A stretch of DNA of 64,000 nt from Mobula hypostoma (Eukaryota), in contig NC_086097.1 in NCBI RefSeq assembly GCF_963921235.1, positions 14,322,001 through 14,386,000 on the forward strand, written 5' to 3'. Made by a program: the position numbers and the translations under genes. Every line of letters begins with the position of its first letter. The stretch's first letter is position 1. The notes beneath the pieces were generated by a model, which saw only the letters and a list, made by a program, of their open reading frames with translations, had not been told where the DNA came from and searched no databases. This document shows, in pieces, positions 322-60,739 of the stretch.

Positions 322-551
322 CTCACAACACGCTGGAGGAAATCAGCAGGTCGGGCAGCATCTGTGGAAACAATCAGTCGACGTTTCGGGCCGGAACTCT
401 TCGTCAGGGTTCCTGACATGTGTCCTGACGAAGGGTTCCAGCCCAAAGCGTCGACTGATTGTTTCCACGGATGCTGCCAAACCTGCTGAGTTCCTCCAGC
501 GTGTTGTGAGTGTTGCTTTGATCCCAGCATCTGCAGATAATTTTTGTGTTT
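322..551. mobile_element. Palindromic non-autonomous Penelope-derived element with hammerhead motifs on both arms
   Basis: Inverted arms ~322-408 and ~424-510; CTGACGA...GAAACGTC core on the minus arm; 14-bp TSD aggataaagtgaat at 308-321 and 552-565. Confidence 0.8.
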
Positions 552-1979: not shown

Positions 1980-2702
1980 AGTGAGGTAGTGTTCATGGGT
2001 TCAATGTCCATTCAGAAATCGGATGGCAGGTAGTTCCTGAATCACTGAGTGTGTGCTTTCAGTGTTGAGTGTGCACCCGTGATGAACGCTGAGGGACCAC
2101 ATTTCAACCAGGTGGGTTGCCGGATGGCACAGCTCACCGGGGCAGAAGGGCCTCTTCTGCGCTGCGTCTCTGAATAAATAAATCAAGTGCACAGCATTTC
2201 ACCAAATGCTCCATCCACTCCACCACACTCGTTACTCTCTGTTTAACCTTGTGACCTGGCCACAGTTCCCCACCACTCGATTGTCCCTGCAGAGTGAGCT
2301 GAACGGCATCTTTGGACAGGAAGGAAGCTTCAAGGGAGCCAAAAGAAGAACAGCGGAGATTGCAGGCGGAATGACATTGCCGTTCAGGAATCTGTGCTGC
2401 AACTTGAGTCCACAGTCTGGGCTAAACAGTACCACATGAACAAATGAGCTTTCAGATCTGGAACAGGCTGAGGGGCCCACCAAGGCTGTTTCATCTCTTT
2501 GAATTTCATCCCAATTAATCCCAATCACTCCTTCTCTTTCCCCGCAGTTCTGAAGTTTCACACCTTCCACTTAGCTGTTAAATCAGTCACTTTTCAACAG
2601 TTACATCTGAAGTGACCTTACATTCCAGATCAGAACTCACTCACAACAAAGAATTTCTGCTCACCACCCACCGACCCTTTGGACCATTTCTGTCAATTTA
2701 TT

Positions 2703-3255
2703 CTCAGTGGACATTTTATTAGGTACCTCCTGTGCCTAATAAAATGGCTACTGAGTGTATGGTCATGGCCTCTGCTGTTGTAGCCCATCCACTCCAAGGT
2801 TTAACACGTTGTGTATTTAGAGATGCTCTTCTGAATGCCACTGTTGTAACACGTGGTGATTTGAGTTACTGTCGCCTTCCTGTCAGCTTGAATCTGTCTG
2901 GCCATTCTCCTCTGACCTCTCTCATTAACAAGGCAGTTTTGCCCACAAAACTGCTGCACACTGGATGTTTTTTTTTTGCACCATTCTCTGGAGACTGTTG
3001 TGCATGAAAATCCCAGGAGGTCAGCAGCTTCTGAGATACTCAAACCACCCCATCTGGCACCAACAATTATTCCATGGTCAAAGTCGTTTAGATCACATTT
3101 GTTTCTGATTCTGATGTTTGGTCTGGACAACAACTGAATGTCTTGAATATGTGTGTATGCTTTTATGCATAGAGTGCTGCCACATGATTGGTTGATTAGA
3201 TATTTGCATTAACGAGCAGGTGTACAGATGTACCTAATAAAGTGGCCATTGAGTG
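2703..3255 (-). mobile_element. Non-autonomous Tc1-like DNA transposon with transposase N-terminal remnant
   Basis: TIRs ctcagtggacattttattaggtac / gtacctaataaagtggccattgag; ORF 2801-3133 (CDLNDFDHGIIVGARWGGLSISEAADLLGFS...ERGQRRMAR) resembles Tc1 paired-HTH domain. Confidence 0.85.
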
Positions 3256-3659
3256 TGAATCCTCCTGCCATCTTTATTTACTCTAGCAATGTTCTTTATA
3301 ATTTTGCACACCTGTGCTACACATCCTTTTAACCTTCACTGTAGAGACGTACACACAGTGGGTGGTCCGTAGATGGAATGAGCTGCTGGAAGAAGTGTAG
3401 AGGTGGGCACAACTGAGATATAGGTAGGACATTTGCACAGGTACTTGGATAGACAGACTCAGAGGGATATAGCCCAAACAAAGGCAAATAGAACAAGATT
3501 AGTTACTGTAGATAACGTGGTTGGAACAGACACGTTGGGCCAAAGTGCTTGTTTTCATACTGTTTAGCTTTGCCTGTCCGTGATTCTTGCTACCTTGGAA
3601 AAGCAGCCAGCAAAATCAAAGACCCATCCCACTCTGGAGGTTCTCTGTTCTAACATTCT

Positions 3660-17365: not shown

Positions 17366-18756
17366 ATCAGTTCTGCTTTATTTCCCATTGCCAGCTTAGT
17401 ACACAGTATAAGCCCTTCCCTCCAGTCTCCACTCTACAAACAGGTTACCTGGTTGGAAATGCAGTGGTCATTGTGGTTTTTATTTGCTCCATTGTGTATA
17501 CTCTCAATTGAACCAAACCTCTTGGTGCCTCGTGGAGCACCTCTACATGTTATCTCCGCACCTGTTATCTTCAGTTCCAGCAAGACTCTAATCTGTGAAG
17601 TTTCTTGAATCCTGTCTCAGTTTGCCTGTCCTCCACTCATGGAGATATCAGAAATCATTAGTAATTTAACCTACTTTCTACAGGAAACACTTACAAAATC
17701 AACCATCATCCTTGCTTCCTTTCTGGAACTTGGCCACCTCAGAATGCTTTTGCTACATTAGTCAGCAGTTAGTCACAGAAAACAATCCTTCGAGAAGTGA
17801 CTGCATGCATACGGCACTGTGACACTTTCCTTCCTTCAGACAAACGTAAGGGGTATTAGAGATGAAAGAGATTAGCTTTATTTGTCAAGTGTACATCGTG
17901 ACATCAAAGTATACAGGGAAATGCATTGTCTGTGTCTGCGACCGACGTGTTCTGGGGTTGTGCTGGGTGAGGACAGCCACTCGTGTCATAATGCTTCCAG
18001 TGCCAACAAAGCATTGCCCACAACTCACTAACCATACCCAGTACATCTTTAGTACCTGGAGGAAGCCCATGCGGTCACCGTGAGAGCACACGAACTCCTC
18101 ACAGAGAATGGTGGGAATTGAACCCTGATCTCCCAATCAGTGATGCTGTAAGGTGACACTCTAACCATTACCTACCCTGCCACTTCCAATCACCCTTCAC
18201 TCCTGCTTTGGATCCTGAAGAAAGCGGCCACTCGTCTATAGTGTCAGACAGCAAGGCAGAGCTAATGGAGACTGACAAAATAGGTAGCTTGTACACACCC
18301 CGGTCCAATCAGTCCTGATAAAGGATCTCGGCTCAAAACGTCGACTGTTTATTCACTTCCACAGATGCTGCCTGACCTACTCAGTTCCTCCAGCATTTTT
18401 GTGTGTGTCGCTCTGGATTTTCAAAAATTTGCAGGCCTTCTCATGTTTATGATTTGCTCATGCAATCTTTCATCTGTTAGTCATAAACACAAGGAAGTCT
18501 GCAGATGCTGGAAATTTCAAAACAACGCACACAAAATGCTGGAGGAACTCAGAAACGAATAGTCAATGTTTCAGGCCCAGACCCTTCTTCGGGACTCAGA
18601 AGGAAGGGGGAAGATGCCAGAATAAAAAGGTGGGGCGAGTGGAAGAACAATAGCTAGAAGATGATAGGGGAAGCCAGGTGGGTGGGGAAGGTAAAGGGCT
18701 GCAGAAGAAGGAACTTGTTAGCAATTGCTGCACTTCACTAACATTTAGTCTTTTGC

Positions 18757-29460: not shown

Positions 29461-30864
29461 AAGTTGGCTAGCCTGGGGCTTGCACCTCACATAAACTGCT
29501 TGAACTACAACAGAGTTATGTCAGAATGTGCAGCTATTGGATTATACCTGATGTGCTGATGTAACTTGTGCTGAGGTTCCATGTTAGCCTTTAGTCCATA
29601 TTATACAAATTCCTCTTCACTCATTGCACACTTAATCCTCCTCTTTGTCTGTTACAAATGTGAGGAACAATACCACAAGTTGGTTATCTTGGCGAGTTGG
29701 TCATAATACCCAACTCAAGACGCCCTACCATACAGAATATCTTCAAAAGGTGGTGCTCACGAAGGAAGCATCCATCATTAATGACCCTCACCAACTGGGA
29801 CATGCCCTCTTCCCATTATTACCATCAGCATGGTTGTACAGGAGCCTGACAACCACTCTCAAAATTTTAGGAACAGCTTCTTCCTCTCTGCCAATAGATT
29901 TCTGTAAGGTCTTTGAAGCCATTAACACTACCTCACTATTGGCGTTTTGCACTATTTATATATTTTATTGTAACTTAGAGTAACTTTTTATGTCTTGTAC
30001 TGTATAGCTGCCGCAAAATAAATTTCACCACACACACATGCACACACAGTGCTGGAGGAACTCAGCAATCCAGCATCTATGGATAATGAACAGTCAACAT
30101 TTTGGGCTGAGATCCTTCATTTTTAAGTATTGTATTTCAATATTTCCAGCATCTGCAGAATCTTTTGCGTTTAAAATTTCATGACATACAGTCTCTACGG
30201 CCCTCACATTGTGCGTGTACAAAGCTCGGCAGGGAGTTAAACACCTTCTCAATAATCTCCCGAGCCGGAAGCTTTCTTCAGGGTTTTTGATGAGAAAAAC
30301 TTCTGAAAAAGATATTGTTGTTTCAAGGGTAAGGAACAAATGGATGAAGATGGATAACTTTCAATGTGACATCAACTTTTATACACAATACCTCAACCGA
30401 TCAAGGCACGAATACCATGTGCCTTCTTTAGCACCTCATCCACTTATATTCTCACTATAGACTTACTGCCTGAGGTCCTTCAGTACATCAATGCTCCTTG
30501 GTGTTTACTGTATGCTTTTCTCTTTCAAAGCTAGCCAGCACCATCATGGGCACAAGCCTCCCCAATCTCGAGGACATCTTTAAAAGGCAATGCCTCAAAA
30601 TGGCAGCATCCATCATTAAGGACCCCCATCACCCAGGACATGCCCTGTTCTCATTGTTACCATCAAGGAGGAGGTATAGGAGCATGAAGACGTACACTCA
30701 ATGTTTCAGCAGCAGCTTCTTCCACTTTGCCATCAGATTTCTGAATGGACAATGAACCCATGTACACTACTTCACTGTTTTTTCCTTCTAATGCTCTTTT
30801 CCCACTACTTGTTTAAATTTATAAACATATATACTATATAAATTAAATATACAAAAGTAAACTG

Positions 30865-38151: not shown

Positions 38152-41135
38152 ATAGAACATAGAACATAGAATAGTACAGCACAGTACAGGCCCTTCAGCC
38201 CACAATATTGTGCCGACACTCAAACCCTGCCTCCCATATAAGCCCCCACCTTAGATTCCTCCATATACCTGTCTAGTAGTCTCTTAAACTTCACTAGTGT
38301 ATCTGCCTCCACCACTGACTCAGGCAGTGCATTCCACGCACCAACCACTCTCTGAGTAAAAAACCTTCCTCTAATATCCCCCTTGAACTTCCCACCCCTT
38401 ACCTTAAACCCATGTCCTCTTGTATTGAGCAGTGGTGCCCTGGGGAAGAGGCGCTGGCTATCCACTCTATCTATTCCTCTTATTATATTGTACACCTCTA
38501 TCATGTCTCCTCTCATCCTCCTTCTCTCCAAAGAGTAAAGCCCTAGCTCCCTTAATCTCTGATCATAATGCATACTTTCTAAACCAGGCAGCATCCTGGT
38601 AAATCTCCTCTGTACCCTTTCCAATGCTTCCACATCCTTCCTATAGTGAGGTGACCAGAACTGGACACAATACTCCAAGTGTGGCCTAACCAGAGTTTTA
38701 TAGAGCTGCATCATTACATCGTGACTCTTAAACTCTATCCCTCGACTTATGAAAGCTAACACCCCATAAGCTTTCTTAACTACCATATCCACCTGTGAGG
38801 CAACTTTCAGGGATCTTCTGTGGACATGTACCCCGAGATCCTTCTGCTCCTCCACATTACCAAGTATCCTGCCATTTACTTTGTACTCTGCCTTGGAGTT
38901 TGTTCTTCCAAAGTGTACCACCTCACACTTCTCCGGGTTGAACTTCATCTGCCACTTCTCAGCCCACTTCTGCATCCTATCAATGTCTCTCTGCAATCTT
39001 TGACAATCCTCTACACTATCTACAACACCACCAACCTTTGTGTCGTCTGCAAACTTGCCAACCTACCCTTCTACCCCCACATCCAGGTCGTTAATAAAAA
39101 TCACGAAAAGTAGAGGTCCCAGAACAGATCCTTGTAGGACACCACTAATCACAATCCTCCAATCTGAATGTACTCCCTCCACCACCACCCTCTGCCTTCT
39201 GCAGGCAAGCCAATTCTGAATCCACCTGGCCAAACTTCCCTGGATCCCATGCCTTCTAACTTTCTGAATAAGCCTACCGTGTGGAACCTTATCAAATGCC
39301 TTACTAAAATCCATATAGATCACATCCACTGCACTAACCTCATCTATATGCCTGGTCACCTCCTCAAAGAACTCTATCAGGCTTGTTAGACACGATCTGC
39401 CCTTCACAAAGCCATGCTGACTGTCCCTGATCAGACCATGATTCTCTAAATGCCTATAGATCCTATCTCTAAGAATCTTTTCCAACAGCTTTCCCACCAC
39501 AGACGTAAGGCTCACTGGTCTATAATTACCCGGACTACCCCACTACCTTTTTTGAACAAGGGAACAACATTTGCCTCCCTCCAATCCTCCGGTACCATTC
39601 CCGTGGACAACGAGGACATAAAGATCCTAGCCAGAGGCTCAGCAATCTCTTCCCTCGCCTCGTGGAGCAGCCTGGGGAATATTCCGTCAGGCCCCGGGGA
39701 CTTATCTGTCCTAATGTATTTTAACAACTCCAACACCTCCTCTCCCTTAATATCAGCATGCTCCAGAACATCAACCTCATTCATATTGTCCTCACCATCA
39801 TCAAGTTCCCTCTCATTGGTGAATACCGAAGAGAAGTATTCATTGAGGACCTTGCTCACTTCCACAGCCTCTAGGCACATCTTCCCACCTTTATCTCTAA
39901 TTGGTCCTACCTTCACTCCTGTCATCCTTTTTTTCTTCACATAATTGAAGAATGCCTTGGGGTTTTCCTTTACCCTACTCGCCAAGGCCTTCTCATGCCC
40001 CCTTCTTGCTCTTCTCAGCCCCTTCTTAAGCTCCTTTCTTGCTTCCCTATATTCCTCAATAGACCCAGCTGATCCTTGCTTCCTAAACCTCATGTATGCT
40101 GCCTTCTTCCTCCTGACTAGATTTTCCACCTCACTTGTCACCCATGGTTCCTTCACCCTACCATTCTTTATCTTCCTCACCGGAACAAACTTATCCCTTA
40201 CATCCCGCAAGAGATCTCTAAACATCGACCACATGTCCACAGTACATTTCCCTGCAAAAACATCATCCCAATTCACACCCGCAAGTTCTAGCCTTATAGC
40301 CTCATAATTTGCCTTTCCCCAATTAAAAATTTTCCTGTCCTCTTTGATTCTATCCTTTTCCATGATAATTATAAAGGCCAGGGAGCGGTGGTCACTATCC
40401 CCCAGATGCTCACCCACTGAGAGATCTGTGACCTGACCCGGTTCATTACCTAGTACTAGATCTAGTATGGCATTCCCCCTGGTCGGCCTGTCCACATACT
40501 GTGACAGGAATCCATCCTGGACACACTTAACAAATTCTGCCCCATCTAAACCCTTGGAACTAATCAGGTGCCAATCAATATTAGGGAAGTTAAAGTCACC
40601 CATGATAACAACCCTGTTATTTTTGCACCTTTCCAAAATCTGCCTCCCAATCTGTTCCTCTGTATCTCTGCTGCTACCAGGGGGCCTATAGAATACCCCC
40701 AGTAGAGTAACTGCTCCCTTCCTGTTCCTGACTTGCACCCATATTGACTCAAAAGAGGATCCTGCTACATTACCCACCCTTTCTGTAGCTGTAATAGTAT
40801 CCCTGACCAGTAATGCCACCCCTCCTCCCCCTTTTCCACCCTCTCTATCCCTTTTAAAGCACTGAAATCCAGGAATATTGAGAATCCATTCCTGCCCTGG
40901 TGCCAGCCAAGTCTCTGTAATGGCCACTACATCATAATTCCATGTATGTATCCAAGCTCTCAGTTCATCACCTTTGTTCCTGATGCTTCTTGCATTGAGG
41001 TACACACATTTCAGCCCTTCTACCTTACTGTCTTTACACCCTTTATTCTGCTTCTCTTTCCTCAAAGCCTCTCTGTATGTTAGATCTGGCTTTACTCCAT
41101 GCACTTCTTTCACTGCTCTATCGCTCTGGGTCCCA
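38152..41135 (-). mobile_element. Young CR1 LINE with almost complete ORF2 (APE endonuclease + RT); one frameshift and one nonsense codon
   Basis: YLNARSI, ITETW, MGDFN, SDH (APE); [20 protein letters not shown] (RT); frameshift ~39540, TAG at 39063-39065; (ttctatg)n tail. Confidence 0.97.
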
Positions 41136-41149
41136 GGGTAAAGGGTAAA

Positions 41150-41720
41150 GGAGCAGAGTAAGGCCATTTAGTGCATTGGGTCTGCCCTGCCATTTATCTA
41201 TGGCTGTCTGTTTTTTCTCAAACCTATTATCCCGCCTTCTTCCCATAACCCTTAACCATTATGAACCTATCGATCTCTGCCTAAGTTATGCCCAATGACA
41301 CGGCCTCCATAGCCCTGCTTGGTAACAAATTCCACTGATTCTCTACCCTCTGGATGAAAAAGATCCTCCTCATCTCGGTTCCAAAGGGATATCCCTCTAT
41401 TCTGAGGCTGTGCCTTTGGATCCAAGATTCTCCTATTAATCCTTGTCACATCTATTCTATCCAGGCCTTGCAGTATTCTTCAAAGAGATTCCCCCGCCCC
41501 CCACCATTCTACTGAACTTCATCGATTACAGGTCCTGAGCCATCAAAAATTCCCATATGTTAAGCCTTTCATTCCCAGGATCATTCTTGTTAACCTCCTC
41601 GGCACCTCTCCAACACCAACACACATTTCCATGGATGCGGCGCCAAGAATTGCTCACAATATTCCAAATGTGGTCTGACCAAAGCCTTATAAAGCCTCAG
41701 TAGTAAATTCTTACTTTTAT
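41150..41720 (-). mobile_element. Old CR1 3' fragment whose tail was the target of the 38152-41135 insertion
   Basis: LYKALVRPHLEY remnant ~41650-41700; 3'UTR resumes at 41150, tail remnant at 38140-38155. Confidence 0.7.
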
Positions 41721-50895: not shown

Positions 50896-52565
50896 CTGGT
50901 TAGCCAAGTGTTTTTAAATTATCTGTGTTTTGAATCTGCAGCTGCAGTGGATCCTGGGATCTTCCTTTTTTGTGTGCTTTCCCGCTTTATGTTTCGCTGG
51001 TTCTGTGCGGGACCTACTCGTTGACACATTGCTTGAAGGGTGGAGCAAGAGCTGTTAGGTGATAAGTGGATCCAAATGAGGCAGTTGATAGTCAAATGAG
51101 GGAAGGAGAAGAGCGGAAATGATGTCCAAAGCTGGGTTGGAGCTAGGAAAAGGCTCTTGTAGAGCATAAATTCAGTCAGAGTGAGTAAGCTTTATCTGTG
51201 CTGAAATCCCTACATAATTTGTTGTCATCTGAGGAGGTGCATGTACCACTGCATCATCCCTACTACAGTATATAAAAAAGAAAAAGAAAAGAAAGATGTA
51301 GTGTCAGAAAAAGAGAAAATGTTAAAGACCATCAGGCATAGGAGGAGAATTAAGCCATTTGTCCCATCGAGTCTGCTCCACCATTTGATGATGTCTGATT
51401 TATTTTTCCACTCAGCCCTTCCTCATAACATTTGATGTCTTTATTAATCAAGAACCCATCAGCCTGTGCTTCAAAAATATCTAAAAGTGAGAATGAAAGA
51501 GGTAAAAGAGGGAACAAGAAAAGGCAAAGAATGGAGGGATATGGACCTCATGAAGGGAAAACGGATTATTTTATGTAGACATTTAATTACTAGTTTATTT
51601 GGCTCAGCACAATATTGTGGACTGAAGGACCTATACCTGTGCTATACTGTTCTATATTCTAAAGAGAGAGAAAACAAAAAGAGATAAAGAAAGAAAAGAG
51701 AAAGGAAAGAGAGAAATAATTATAAGAAGATACAGGGGGAAAGAAGGAGAAGAAATAAATGAATAAATTGACAATAAACAAACGGGCTGGCTTGTCTATC
51801 AATCTGTTCCTGGTCATATGAAAAACTCTCACACTTTGTGCCACAATGTTACTTCAGCAGAGGAATACAGTTCAACCATCTATCCTTCATGCCCTTAAAG
51901 TCACCTGTCAGCTCCCAGTGTAGGATTCAATTTACTCTGAGTTTATTCACTGAACTTTTCTACCCACTCTCCACCCTTCACTTTCACCAAGGAAGACAGA
52001 GTAGCAGCATACCTACAATGGTAGCCATTTCCACAGAAAGGATCTAATCCACTGTAAAAGAATTGTTCCTTCAATGTCAAAGTTGGCAAGATATTCTGTC
52101 AAAGTGTCCATCTGGGAGCTGACTAACCTCAGATGGCAAATCTGAAAAAACTTCAAGCACAGGGATTCAAAGCAGAAACCAGAAAAAATGGACCATTGGC
52201 CACAGCTGAAATCGTCGGTCTCAATGTTGAACATAGATGTCCTTCATAAAACTGAAACGCTAAAACCCTTCTGTCTGATTTTCAAGGTGGTGATTGGTGC
52301 CTCCTCAGCAATAATTCCTACAGCTCGAGCAGGTGGTGGACAGCCATTGGGGACTTTCTGGGGAAGTGTGGTGGTGCAGCAGTTTGTGCGGCCGTCTCAT
52401 CTTGGATCTGAACCAGTTATGTGAATCAGAACTCTGCCTGGTTTCCACCAGCCTCTCTGTGGCTTCTTGGGGAGGAACAAAGAAAACACTGGCTAATGAA
52501 ATGACATTGAGTGGAGAAGAACAGTGGTAGAGAAATGTCCTACAGAAGCCATGACGTTATAAGTT

Positions 52566-52800
52566 TAAACGCAAACAACAGGAATTCTGCAGATGCTGGA
52601 AATTCAAGCAACATACATCAAAGTTGCTGGTGAACGCAGCAGGCCAGGCAGCATCTATAGGAAGAGGCGCAGTCGACGTTTCAGGCCGAGACCCTTCGTC
52701 AGGACTAACTTAGAAGGGTCTCGGCCTGAAACGTCGACTGCGCCTCTTCCTATAGATGCTGCCTGGCCTGCTGCGTTCACCAGCAACTTTGATGTATGTT
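52566..52800 (-). mobile_element. Young fold-back Penelope-derived hammerhead element
   Basis: Perfect 88-bp inverted arms 52610-52697 / 52713-52800; 12-bp TSD acgttataagtt at 52554-52565 and 52801-52812. Confidence 0.9.
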
Positions 52801-53624
52801 ACGTTATAAGTTCTCTACATTTATCCTTGCAATAATGACTCATTAACCTAGAAGTTACTTTGGCTAACTTCCATGGATTATTTCATGGTCAAAAGGGATA
52901 AAACATCTGAAGTTGAAACTTCAAAATAAAAACAGGAAGTACCACCATCTCCAAGTTTCTCGCCAAGTCACAACTGTGAGGAACACCCACACAATCTGGA
53001 GGTGCTCAGCAGGTCAGGCAGCATTTATGATGATGGTGAGGTAGCATCCCGATGAAGGGTCTCAGCCTTATGCATCAACTTTTCATTCAGAAATGGTCTG
53101 ACCTGCTGAGTTCTTCAGCGTTTTGTGTGTGTTGCTCAGGGTTTCCAGCATCTACGTAATCTCTGGTGTCTCCAGAGTCACACACATCATGGAAATCAGC
53201 CTCCCCTCCATGGACTATGTCTATAGAGCTCGTCACCTCAGTAAAGCAGCCGGCATAATCAAAGACCACCCCACCCCCCCCACCCGTCCTTCCCAGACAT
53301 TCTCTTCTCCGCTCTCCCATTGGGCAGAAGATACAAAAGCCTGACTATATGTACCACCATGTTCAAGGACAGCTTCTACCCTGCTGTAATAAATCTATTA
53401 AATTGTTCCTTAGCATGATAAAATGAATGCTTGACCTCACAATCTACCTTCTTATGACCTTGCACTTTGCTGTTTACCTGCATTGCACTTTCTCCATAGC
53501 TCGTGCATTTTATTCTGCATTGTTATTCTTTTATCTTGTTCTACCTCCATGTAGTGATTTGATCTGCATGGGCAGTATCTAAGACAAGCTTTTTACCATA
53601 TCTCTGTATATGTGACGATAATAA

Positions 53625-55730
53625 ATCAAAAGAAGCTGCAGAAGGTTGTAAATCTAGTCGGCTCCATCTTGGGTACTAGCCTACAAAGTACCCAGGACAT
53701 CTTCGGGAGCGGTGTCTCAGAAAGGCAGCGTCCGTTATTAAGGACCTCCAGCACCCAGGGCATGCCCTTTTCTCACTGTTACCATCTGGTAGGAGGTACA
53801 GAAGCCTGAAAGCACACACTCAGCGATTCAGGAACAGCTTCTTCCCCTCTGCCATCCGATTCCTAAATGGACATTGAATCTTTGGACACTACTTCACTTC
53901 TTTTTTAATATACAGTATTTCTGTTTTTGCACGTTTTTTTTACCTATTCAATATACGTAATTGATTCACTTGTTTAATCATTATTATTTTTATTTTATTT
54001 ATTTATTTTTCTCTGTTAGATTATGTATTGCATTGAACTGCTGCTGCTAAGTTAACAAATTTCACGTCATATGTTCTGGAGCATGCTGATATTAAGGGAG
54101 AGGAGGTGTTGGAGTTGTTAAAATACATTAGGACAGTTAAGTCCCCGGGGCCTGACGGAATATTCCCCAGGCTGCTCCACGAGGCGAGAGAAGAAATTGC
54201 TGAGCCTCTGGCTAGGATCTTTATGTCCTTGTTGTCCATAGGAATGGTACTGGAGGATTGGAGGGAGGCGAATGTTGTTCCCTTGTTCAAAAAAGGTAGT
54301 AGGGATAGTCCGGGTAATTATAGACCAGTGAGCCTTACGTCTGTGGTGGGAAAGCTGTTGGAAAAGATTCTTAGAGATAGGATCTATAGGCATTTAGAGA
54401 ATCATGGTCTGATCAGAGACAGTCAGCATGGTTTTGTGAAGGGCAGATCGTGTCTAACAAGCCTGATAGAGTTCTTTGAGGAGGTGACCAGACATATAGA
54501 TGAGGGTAGTGCAGTGGATGTGATCTATATGGATTTTAGTAAGGAATTTGACAAGGTTCCACACGGTAGGCTTATTCAGAAAGTTAGAAGGCATGGGATC
54601 CAGGGAAGTTTGGCCAGGTGGATTCAGAATTGGCTTGCCTGCAGAAGGCAGAGGGTGGTGGTGGAGGGAGTACATTCAGATTGGAGGATTGTGACTATTG
54701 GTGTCCCACAAGGATCTGTTCTGGGACCTCTACTTTTCGTGATTTTTATTAACGACCTGGATGTTGGGGTAGCAGGGTGGATTGGCAAGTTTGCAGATGA
54801 CACAAAGGTTGGTGGTGTTGTAGATAGTGTAGAGGATTGTCAAAGATTGCAGAGAGATGTTGATAGGATGCAGAAGTGGGCTGAGAAGTGGCAGATGGAG
54901 TTCAACCCGGAGAAGTGTGAGGTGGTACACTTTGGAAGGACAAACTCCAAGGCAGAGTACAAAGTAAATGGCAGGATACTTGGTAGTGTGGAGGAGCAGA
55001 ATGATCTAGGGGTACATGTCCACAGATCCCTGAAAGTTGCCTCACAGGTGGATAGGGTAGTTAAGAAAGCTTATGGGGTGTTAGCTTTCATAAGTCGAGG
55101 GATAGAGTTTAAGAGTCTCGATGTAATGACGCAGCTCTATAAAACTCTGGTTAGGCCTCACTTGGAGTATTGTGTCCAGTTCTGGTCACCTCACTATAGG
55201 AAGGATGTGGAAGCATTGGAAAGGGTACAGAGGAGATTTACCAGGACGCTGCCTGGTTTAGAAAGTATGCATTAAGATCAGAGATTAAGGGAGCTAGGGC
55301 TTTACTCTTTGGAGAGAAGGAGGATGAGAGGAGACATGATAGAGGTGTACAAGATAATAAGAGGAATAGATAGAGTGGATAGCCAGTGCCTCTTCCCCAG
55401 GGCACCACTGCTCAATACAAGAGGACATGGGTTTAAGGTAAGGGGTGGGAAGTTCAAGGGGGATATTAGAGGAAGGTTTTTTACTCAGAGAGTGGTTGGT
55501 GCGTGGAATGCACTGCCTGAGTCAGTGGTGGATGCAGGTACACTCGTGAAGTTTAAGAGACTACTAGACAGGTATATGGAGGAATCTAAGGTGGGGCTTA
55601 TATGGGAGGCAGGGTTTGAGGGTCGGCACAACATTGTGGGCCGAAGGGCCTGTACTGTGCTGTACTATTCTATGTTCTATGTTCTATCTACATGCCGGTG
55701 ATAATAAATCTGATTCTGATTCTGATTCTG
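53625..55730 (+). mobile_element. Rex1/Babar 3' fragment split in its tail by a CR1
   Basis: [15 protein letters not shown]; 3'UTR stops ~54070 and resumes ~55690 with (tctgat)n. Confidence 0.85.
54070..55687 (+). mobile_element. Young 5'-truncated CR1 (complete RT domain, one nonsense codon)
   Basis: ORF 54106-55275 and 55309-55701; near-identical to 38152-39770. Confidence 0.97.
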
Positions 55731-56745: not shown

Positions 56746-59164
56746 CCTATTGGACACTGGTGAGGTGGTGGTAGAGGTAGATACACTAAGGACATTGAAG
56801 AGACTCTGAGACAGGTACATGGATGAAAGAAAATAGAGGGCTGTGTGGGAGGGAAGGGTGAGACTGATCTTAGAGTAGGTTAAAAGGTCAGTACAACATT
56901 GTGGGCCCAAGTCCATCAGACATAGGAGCAGAATTAGACCATTCAGCTCCACTATTGTATCACGACTGAATGATTATCCCTCTTGACCCCATTCTCCTGC
57001 CTCCTCACTGTAACGTTTGATGCCCTAACTAATCAATGAACCTTTCAACCTCCACTATAAATATACTCCACGACTTGGCCTCCACAGCCATCCATGGCAA
57101 TGACTTCCACAGATTCACTACCCTCACTGGCTAAAGAAATTGCTCCTCAGCTCTGTTGTAAATGGAAGGGCCTGCACGGTGCAGTAATGTTGTATTTTCT
57201 ATGTTTCACTTACACTCTATAAGCACCAGCTGGGGGAATGTACCAGCAGGTCTCTTGTGGAACTGCTTGTGGTAAGTAATGCCAATCTTATAATATTACA
57301 ATGTGCTAGCAGTTTGACTGAAATTTCGACAAGACGTCCCTGATGGGGGACTGCGGATACCATTCTACAGATATGCTACCATTGGTAAGCTGCTTCTTAG
57401 GGCCACAAAGCTTTCTGACACAAGCAACTTGTTCAAATAAATAATTTACCGATGGAATTTGGTGAGTGCTGCCAATAGGAAGAGGCATAATTTAAATGTG
57501 ATTGGAGGAAAGTATATGGGGGATGGCAGAGATAAGTTTCTTTACACAAAGAATGGTAGGTACATGGTATGCCCTGCCAACGATGGTGGCAGTGGCTACT
57601 TGAGGGTGATTTAAGCGACTCATTGAAAAATGGAGGACAATGTGGGAATGAAGGGTTAGATTGATCTTGAAATAGGTTAAGGGTTGGCACAACATTGTGG
57701 GCTGAAGGGCTGGTACTGTGCTGTAAATTCCAGCAGAGAGCCAATGCTATAGACTGAGCATTCTAATGCATGCCATTGGCCGTAGTGATCTCTGGAAGAC
57801 CTTGAGGTCATGGAAGGTGATCCTTTCATAACATGTGCCACTATCATAGGAGCCTTGCAGCAGATTATATCTTGTTGTGCTTTCTTTTTGCATCTGAGTC
57901 ACTCTGAACCGTTACATCTTTTTTCTCACCAGTAAATAGGTCATCATCACTGGCAGCAGTTTGGGAACTAGATAAGGATCCAATCAAGAAGAATAAGTAA
58001 TTTATGCATTCAAGAATGTTGCTGTCATTCCAACCCCAGCAAGCTGCGCCCTCCCCAACCATTGCCCCCTCCCAGTGTTACCCTATAACACCCCTGTCCT
58101 GGCAGTGGGTTTCAGGAAACCAGTTAACCTGATCTGCTAGTTCCGACCGAGATATCCGAACCAAACTGTCAAAGCTAAATTGCTGCTTTTAACTGTTTGA
58201 TTGGACATCAAAATCTAAACTGTTCAAGCAGATGACTGGATTTTCACACAGCTTGTGCCAGGTTAATTTGTTGCACAGTATGGTACTTCCACACAAGCCA
58301 CCTGGACCCCTTCCTACCATGCCTATGCAAGCATCTTGGATCCTTGCTCTCGTTTTAATTATTCCTCCCGGTGCCAGGGCTGAGGACTGGAGCCAGGGAG
58401 CATTAGAAGCAGTGAGCTCGCTCCAGTCACAGCAGGCTGCTGCTCCCATGTATCCCTGGCAGATCTGCCATTAACTGGTGTGTTTTGGCCAGCGTGCAGG
58501 CTTGGCATTAGTGCGGCTGGGGTGCTGTGCCTCTCTGCGCAAGCAAAGTACTTCCTCGGCAATCTCGAACCCACCAGCTCCCAGTGACTTTTCTCCCCCC
58601 TCCCCTGCCCCGCTGATCAATGACCCCAATGCTCATTACAATCTCCTGGGCTTGAAAATGGTGTCGTCCACTTGGGACCTCCCTAACCCTCCGCAGTGAT
58701 TGCAGGCAAACATTCCACTCTACTCTGCAGCACAGTTCAAATGTCTGGCTTATCGGAAATTATGTGCCATTTCCAACTCAAGACTGGCCTGGCTGATAAT
58801 TGCCCCTTACCCCTAAGATTGCACCTCGAAAGCACACGGAATAACGATGTGCTTTTTAACAATGCTTATAAAATTTTGGCTAGTCTGTCTTTGGAGCATT
58901 GTGTAAAATTACAGCTCCCCCGTTTAACAGAGTATGTGGAAGCTTCAGGAAAGCCACAGAAGAAGTTTACAAGTAGCACACACAAAATGCTGGAGGAACC
59001 TATCAGTTCAGTCAGCATCTATGAACAGGAATAAGGAATCAACATTTCAGGTCTCAGCCCAGAATAACAACTCTTTATTCCTTTCCATTGCTGCTGCCTG
59101 CGCTGAGTGCCTCCAACATTTTCTATGTGTTCCTCTGGATTCCCAGCTTCTCTTGTGTTTATGA

Positions 59165-59945
59165 AAAAGCTTACATGGATGCTACTTGGAGTAAAGGGTA
59201 TGAGCTATAAGGAGAGGTTGTACAATCTTGGGCTGTTTCCTTCGGAGGCTGAGGAGAGACCAGAGGGAAGGTAGACTGTCAGAATTGATTTTCCAGAGTG
59301 AGAGTGTCAAATACTAGAGGGCATGCATTTAATATGTGAGGGGAAAATTCAAAGGAGATGTCTAGGGCAAGTTTTTTTTACACAGGTTTTTTTTAACAAA
59401 TGTCTGGTACAGGCTGCTGGGGGTAGTGGTGGAGACAATTGGAACAGTGGTGTTAAAGAGGCTGTTAGATAGACGAGAATGTACAGGGTATAGAGGGATA
59501 TCAATCATGAAGATAGTTCCCGATGTTGTGGAAGTCCAGAACGAGGGGTCACAGTTTAAGGATAAAGGGGAAGCCTTTTAGTACCAAGATGAGGAAAAAC
59601 TTCTTCACACAGGGAGTGGTGAATCTGTGGAATTCTCTGCCACAGGAAACAGTTGAGGCCAGTTCATTGGCTATATTTGAGAGGGAGTTAGATATGGCCC
59701 TTGTGGCTAAAGGGATCGGGGATATGGAGAGAAGACGGGGTTCTGAGTTGGATGATCAGCCATGATCATACTGAATGGCGGTGCAGGCTCTAAGGGCCGA
59801 ATGGCCTACTCCTGCACCTATTTTCTATGTTTCTATGTACAGGCAGGAAAGATTCAGTTTAATTCAGTGTTGTACACAGCACAGACATTGTGGGCAGAAG
59901 GGCCTGTTCCTGTGCTGAAGTTCTCTATGTTCTCTGTTCTAAATG
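59165..59945 (+). mobile_element. Old CR1 3' fragment with nested younger CR1 3' end (~59515-59838)
   Basis: ORF 59523-59765 SRTRGHSLRIKGKPF...NLWNSLPQ. Confidence 0.85.
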
Positions 59946-60739
59946 ACCATAGTTCTATTGGCTGAACACAGAGCGTAGAACAGTACAGCATAAGAACGGG
60001 ACCTTCAGTCCACAACGTTGGACCAAACGAAATAAATTAGTAGTCAAATGGCCAACTAACTTAGTAATCAATCCTCGGGGGACTTTTGCAGCTTACCAAC
60101 AAAAACTCCTGACTGGATCACAAAGCTTCATAGCACCAAAGTAAACTATTTGTCCTACTATATCAAAGCAGGCTCCGCAGTGCGATTCTTCTGCCTAAGC
60201 AATGTCCATATCCCTCTATTCTCCTCACATTCATGTGCCTCTCTTAACATCTCTTAAAAGTCCCTGATGTATCAGCCTCTACCACCACCCCAGACAGTGA
60301 CTTCCAGCCACCCACCACCCTCTGTGTAAAAAAAACTTGCTCACACATCGCCTTTGAAATTGCCCCCTCTCGCCTTAAATGCCCTCTGGTATTAGAATTG
60401 GAAATAGGGAATGTCATTCACAGAACATGAAGACTAACTAGAATAGAAAAGGAGTGGAGAGAATGCAAAGTGAATCTTACTGCAGCGCCAGCTTTGGTAT
60501 GGGAGGACAAAGAGTTTACTTTGGTGCTGTGAAGTGTTGTGATCCAGTTGGGGGTTTTTGTGAATAAGCTGCAGAATTCCCCCATGGATTGAAGTGGTGC
60601 TGGGAAAGGTGGGAAGCTTGAGTGCTGAGGAGGATAAGAGAACAGTCAGAGAAGAGGTTGGGACTAAAATGACTGCCCGACAGGGATCCATCAGAAACTA
60701 AAGATGCTGCCACAGGAGATGGTGGATTCTGCAGCCAAC

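Follow-up and report, generated by a model that had tools for sequence, protein, structure and literature searches.

A palindromic 235-nt insertion in the ray Mobula hypostoma is most likely the product of a single Penelope-like element integration event

An inverted copy combined with a tail is described as typical of Penelope-like elements (PLEs) (Craig 2021, PMC8557442; Arkhipova 2013, PMC3846280), and both Craig 2021 (PMC8557442) and a curation guide (PMC8969392) list the inverted copy and a tail of 30-40 bp as usual. For the formation of the inverted repeats of PLEs, self-priming was proposed in 2013, and two start sites of reverse transcription were shown in vitro in 2024. In the latter study, a PLE protein was found to cut and extend both strands of its target, to prefer AT-rich DNA and to begin synthesis at two internal positions, which delimit the tail, on an RNA template that stayed uncleaved (Frangieh 2024, PMC11167929). 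For minimal PLE hammerheads, Cervera and De la Pena (2014, PMC4209133) found no cleavage of a monomer and a low level of cleavage for dimers, and they noted pairs of such motifs 100-700 bp apart on opposite strands. Here we describe an insert of 235 nt from a 64-kb window, by which we mean the whole stretch of Mobula hypostoma DNA that was analysed (64,000 nucleotides). The insert is the shortest form of the known PLE insertion pattern and a young, tidy example of it; the type of structure has already been described and a single copy is of little weight, but such a copy is useful as material.

Insertions of the Pen2a_Av type, with inverted pLTR and tail, share with the insert a head-to-head inverted, 5'-truncated copy, a tail at one end, a single short target-site duplication (TSD) around the unit and a palindrome at the junction (PMC3846280, PMC8557442). 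Unlike them, the insert holds no ORF or direct repeat and consists of just two pieces of the terminal repeat, and its tail of 44 nt slightly exceeds the 30-40 bp described for PLEs (PMC8557442). The Poseidon element of Anolis carolinensis, as studied in vitro, resembles the insert in its two tail-bounding end points, its AT-rich target and a template uncut by the hammerhead; it probably belongs to a different clade, judging by the Neptune-type linker of the ray protein P0002, and inverted arms are not discussed in the covered parts of the Poseidon paper (PMC11167929). Metazoan non-LTR retrozymes are, like the insert, small, non-coding, PLE-derived and equipped with a type I hammerhead. However, they form head-to-tail units with a hammerhead each and give rise to circular RNAs (PMC7761336; bioRxiv 10.64898/2026.07.22.740005), and where a retrozyme has at least two head-to-tail units with complete hammerheads, the insert is arranged head to head with one complete motif.

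The insert extends from 52566 to 52800 and is flanked by an exact 12-bp TSD, ACGTTATAAGTT, at 52554-52565 and 52801-52812 (A+T 75%). This 12-mer occurs just twice in the 64-kb window, and the chance of such a match is about 1e-7 per fixed position; the TSD is short and encloses the whole unit, and those of two other copies measure 14 and 15 bp. From left to right, the insert is composed of a one-sided tail of 44 nt, with which the full arm terminates at its 3' side (52566-52609, minus strand), the mirrored part of the full arm (52610-52697, minus strand, 88 nt, the PLE terminal repeat corresponding to positions 1854-1941 of a sibling copy described below), a spacer of 15 nt and an inverted arm of 88 nt (52713-52800, plus strand), which begins within the core of the hammerhead and runs to the inner of two family end points (sibling 1941). 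In the tail, 38 nt match sibling 1942-1979 and the last 6 nt resemble the loose-end consensus of the family behind 1979. The spacer comprises 13 element-derived bases (52698-52710, minus strand), which equal sibling 1841-1853 and hold upstream bases, the 5' strand of stem I and CUGAC, followed by the two extra bases TA (52711-52712, no strand assigned), which are not in the sibling. The earlier note on this DNA, made from the letters alone, had described a 235-bp insertion with a 12-bp TSD and two identical 88-bp inverted arms around a 15-nt spacer; coordinates and repeat were re-derived and are correct, and the arms are complementary at 88 of 88 positions (100%). Its description as a perfect fold-back does not hold, because the 44 nt at the left end, which it leaves unmentioned, have no mirror in the other arm, and terminal inverted repeats reaching both ends of the insert were accordingly not found. 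This unmirrored tail is the diagnostic feature of the insert.

The sibling is a 5'-truncated PLE at 1343-1979 on the plus strand (637 bp), comprising the C-terminus of the endonuclease, the UTR, the hammerhead and the tail, with a 15-bp TSD at 1328-1342 and 1980-1994; the sibling lies within another repeat (1328-1994). Read on the minus strand, 52710-52572 of the insert is identical to sibling 1841-1979 at 133 of 139 positions. The end of the sibling ORF yields a peptide of 65 aa with matches in 11 of 17 candidate proteins, the best being the Mobula hypostoma protein P0002 at 95% identity, and both figures sustain the PLE origin proposed in the earlier note. P0002 carries a YIDD motif and a cysteine linker of the form C-X4-C-X2-C. 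Its match to the Pfam GIY-YIG model (E 4.6e-4, 20.9 bits) lies under the cut-off of 22.6, such matches being found in three of four proteins and sub-threshold in each; the 65-aa peptide by itself gave no Pfam match. Judged by sequence, insert and sibling represent a Penelope-like element of a ray, for which the linker of P0002 suggests the Neptune type. The features of an insertion by an endonuclease-bearing PLE are present together, namely PLE sequence, an inverted 5'-truncated copy, a one-sided tail and a short TSD. A number of ray gene models that carry host names (P0004, P0006, P0008, P0010 and P0011) also contain the PLE endonuclease end, which suggests exonisation or annotation errors.

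Both arms had been said to share the same differences from the sibling, and we could locate four of these (sibling 1868, 1882, 1883 and 1937), all inside the mirrored part. C>T at 1868 is a frequent variant of the family, with 49% of summed contig depth in X1, 46% in X5, 17% in X15 and 59% in X13, so that shared differences do not prove either arm to have served as template for its partner; the differences at 1882, 1883 and 1937 are absent from the 40 family entries listed of 230. These figures come from the contigs of four of the 23 runs listed, which were aligned to sibling 1340-2060 and not to the locus of the insert. Between 17,293 and 236,347 contigs per run matched, a count of contigs and not of copies, which indicates that the PLE family is very abundant. 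Summed contig depth at sibling 1840-1864 is about twofold in X1 and X5 and higher in X15 and X13, again not a copy number; older subfamilies match the sibling only at 1840-1864, and the rise in depth there was left out of the argument. Contig joints running from 1943 or 1945 straight to 1980 suggest tail-less copies beside the same kind of target.

A profile built from seven window copies and ending at position 141 gave 23 matches in the 64-kb window and one in the reversed-window control. Among the 23 are five head-to-head pairs, at 322-551, 30033-30173, 52566-52800, about 52973-53172 and 58972-59162, which have five different junctions (first model positions of the arms 7/3, 12/74, 14/2, 54/5 and 24/18). 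In every pair the shorter arm ends at model position 98-108 and its partner at 121-140. When all 23 matches are taken together, eight ends fall at 98-108, twelve at 121-140 and three elsewhere, counts that lean on the model, since it was built on seven window copies and stops at 141; in contigs of other runs, the same two end points are marked by joints at sibling positions 1943 and 1945 and by many loose ends at 1979. The main arms of the four other pairs are 70-84% similar to the insert and belong to older subfamilies. The pair at 322-551 (plus strand), from another, older subfamily, has an exact 14-bp TSD (308-321 and 552-565), a tail of about 41 nt and a junction of its own, at which a 6-bp snap-back-like hairpin with a 3-nt loop is followed by a few filler bases, with the CUGA core in both arms. 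In the old pair at 30033-30173, the direct arm is nearly all tail and the arms barely overlap, a layout compatible with two-sided priming on a single RNA or with a later deletion; 30020-30186 includes a candidate 13-bp TSD with two mismatches. A candidate TSD of the same length, also with two mismatches, is found at 58959-59175 around the old pair at 58972-59162, whose junction apparently lies at the self-complementary stem II of the hammerhead. The pair at 52973-53172, 160 bases to the right of the insert, is decayed, and a 10-bp TSD candidate with two mismatches was rejected as within chance.

Copies in other arrangements were also seen. At 18308-18598, two terminal repeats stand tail to tail with 36 bases between them, and an opposite-strand contig joint 1945/1978, at the two end points, occurs in six contigs of X1, six of X5 and one of X13. 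Solo copies at 18308 and 32090 start within a few bases of the 5' edge of the hammerhead, beside sequence unlike the UTR of the element; this edge is possibly a preferred stop of reverse transcription. Contig joints 1871/1831 and 1873/1834, near the hammerhead and given without orientation, were excluded from the junction counts.

The two arms of the insert meet close to the hammerhead. The full arm ends at sibling 1841, where 8 nt still separate it from the CUGA core on the upstream side, which corrects the earlier placement of the fold-back point in the hammerhead; the inverted arm begins at sibling 1854. Positions 1841 and 1854 bracket an inverted match of CCTTC and GAAGG, and this register is the sole one of 2,923 tested with an inverted match of at least 5 nt. 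The extra TA is not among the 11 family indels listed. We observed post hoc that the last six spacer bases (52707-52712, the two extra ones among them) are complementary to the six bases that close the left TSD (52560-52565), which is possibly a templated fill-in. A turn at the ribozyme cleavage site was considered and ruled out, none of the five window junctions lying there. The predicted cut sites are after 52675 on the minus strand and after 52735 on the plus strand, and neither arm ends at them; both arms reach upstream of the cut site, which implies that the RNA template was uncleaved.

The hammerhead of the insert, a minimal type I motif on the minus strand (52669-52707), reads from 52707 to 52669 as a 5-bp stem I, CUGACGA, one unpaired A, a 4-bp stem II closed by G-U, and GAAACGUC. 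The CUGANGA and GAAA cores, stems I and II, a palindromic stem III and an NUH site are all present on this strand; the plus arm, whose first bases are the GA of CUGACGA, has no CUGAC, which agrees with the earlier report of a full minus-strand hammerhead and a plus arm without the core. Its classification as a minimal hammerhead is also apt: the motif shares with the metazoan PLE hammerheads a short stem I, an unpaired base before stem II and a palindromic, loopless stem III, and departs from them in the closing pair of stem II, which is a conserved G-C there, and in having the full core on one strand only, buried in a perfect duplex (PMC4209133). In an Rfam search of the insert, no hammerhead model matched at E values of up to 1. 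Matches to miRNA-precursor models were set aside, as they lay under the gathering scores and any long hairpin attracts such models.

The whole insert is predicted to fold into a near-perfect hairpin of -197.8 kcal/mol, compared with -144.4 kcal/mol when the hammerhead is forced, a cost of about 53 kcal/mol; the full arm by itself folds at -36.6 kcal/mol, or at -32.0 kcal/mol with the hammerhead imposed, a penalty of 4.6. On a minus-strand transcript the antisense arm would be made before the hammerhead arm. Together, the large penalty and this order of synthesis lead us to predict that the hammerhead is sequestered in the hairpin and inactive in this context, and we propose that the ribozyme motif is a passenger. 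The potential for a cruciform or double-stranded RNA that had been pointed out before would follow from the insert sequence itself.

We conclude that the insert is most likely the dead-on-arrival product of a single PLE integration event. Five pairs with five junctions, and arms that end at two family end points, argue for formation at insertion and against a replicating family, and we hold it very probable that the insert was formed in this way, by priming from both sides or by self-priming. As to the route, we lean towards priming by both nicked strands, with the cDNAs joined by microhomology. The GIY-YIG endonuclease of the PLE would introduce staggered nicks 12 bp apart into an AT-rich target, and each nicked 3' end would prime reverse transcription on the terminal-repeat part of an uncleaved PLE RNA. 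The first priming, at the outer start site, would include the tail and copy 145 nt; the second, at the inner site 44 nt upstream, would copy 88 nt. Both cDNAs would stop close to the 5' side of the hammerhead and be joined head to head at the CCTTC/GAAGG match, with the two extra bases, and fill-in of the staggered nicks would give the TSD. In L1 twin priming, both target nicks likewise prime cDNA, which gives a 5' inversion within one TSD and microhomology at the junction. There, the two arms span different parts of one RNA, whereas both arms of the insert contain the same stretch, so that either two RNAs or both terminal repeats of a single RNA would be required.

Anatomy, family, end points and junction register are taken from our own analysis, and the cutting of both strands and the two start sites from the paper on another PLE; we infer that both primings fell within one event, as well as the mode of end joining. 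Two-sided priming explains how the arms are oriented, why the tail is present on one side and why the arm ends are fixed, as well as the barely overlapping arms at 30033-30173, for which copying of one arm from the other is insufficient without a later deletion. This pair is old, however, and such a deletion could have occurred there, which weakens the support that it gives. The sample of five pairs is small, and four of them come from older subfamilies. A published statement of this route for the inverted arms of PLEs was not found in our literature search, which covered mostly open-access papers; one may exist elsewhere.

The alternative that we take most seriously, though we think it rather unlikely, is self-priming, in which the cDNA from the outer start would pass the hammerhead, fold its 3' end at the 5-nt inverted match and copy itself, and the product would then be resolved, by the endonuclease or by repair, 44 nt before the end is reached. 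Self-priming was inferred from palindromic head-to-head junctions, and the tail has been ascribed to resolution by the endonuclease (Arkhipova 2013, PMC3846280; Craig 2021, PMC8557442). The identity of the arms and the position of the junction on the sole 5-nt inverted match, a natural mini-hairpin, fit self-priming equally well, and the snap-back-like hairpin at the 322-551 junction speaks for it and against two-sided priming. Moreover, two extra bases are unexpected from a clean microhomology join, and the source RNA may have been without the CCTTC of the sibling, given that C>T at 1837 makes up 38% of depth in X1, which again counts against such a join. On the other hand, self-priming requires a further mechanism that halts copying at the inner point, which is also an end of solo copies and a reported start of reverse transcription in vitro (PMC11167929); the two extra bases precede the pairing bases, and the 30033 pair has arms with hardly any overlap. 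The earlier suggestion of a snapshot of self-primed second-strand synthesis is sound in so far as it sees a product of PLE integration, and leaves the stop of the inverted arm at the inner point unexplained on its own.

Very unlikely, in our view, is a non-autonomous fold-back unit whose own transcripts are re-inserted in trans by PLE proteins, with the same junction at many loci. A minus-strand transcript of the insert would end 3' in a complete terminal repeat and tail, and terminal repeats were enough for mobilisation in trans in a rotifer (PMC3846280). It is just as doubtful that the hairpin is a replicating non-coding parasite of the PLE, whose read-through RNA would offer terminal repeat and tail to the PLE protein and whose antisense arm would block cutting of the template by the hammerhead, the same junction thereby spreading to many loci. 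None of the four other window pairs has the junction of the insert, which is also absent from the best 15 of 450 contig joints and the best 12 of 354 joints with letters between, X1 being counted in part; the contig comparison is a weak argument. The single intact hammerhead, held in the 88-bp duplex at the folding cost given above, and the missing head-to-tail repeat that retrozymes have argue against such a unit as well, and one sequestered motif would not support excision or circularisation of the retrozyme type. The mobile, protein-free hairpin or ribozyme unit offered in the earlier note is not supported by these observations, and the check that the note had named, shared versus scattered breakpoints, argues against a replicating family as far as the pairs of the 64-kb window go: all five junctions differ. 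Since short inverted matches close to the hammerhead attract junctions, some shared breakpoints would be expected even without a replicating family. No published fold-back family of sharks or rays was found in the literature search, and exact-pattern scans of metagenome contigs, viral contigs and prokaryote genomes gave no match.

It is likewise very unlikely that the symmetry arose after insertion or is a fold-back artefact of assembly or reads: long perfect palindromes are prone to conversion and cruciform repair and to such artefacts, and the two extra bases may be a repair scar at the loop, but a fold-back read does not give a perfect TSD past the right arm or a one-sided tail, four further window pairs have the same architecture with diverged arms, and a young insertion accounts for identical arms without conversion.

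Young, minimal, TSD-bounded pairs in a copy-rich ray genome make arm origins, overlap and junction microhomology countable, and such counts would discriminate between two-sided priming and fold-back. Inserts of this kind, if transcribed, would be a source of perfect 88-bp double-stranded RNA. In the remainder of the window, Pfam searches of four other ORFs revealed no host gene. Two further inverted-repeat elements were seen, one at 60068-60592 with 121-nt arms 283 apart, the other at 2696-3260 with 34-nt arms that lie 497 apart and flank a short ORF resembling a piece of a Tc1 transposase. Many LINE-like reading frames of endonuclease and reverse-transcriptase appearance are also present, among them those at 38220-41167 and 54037-55701, which are presumably of the CR1 type.
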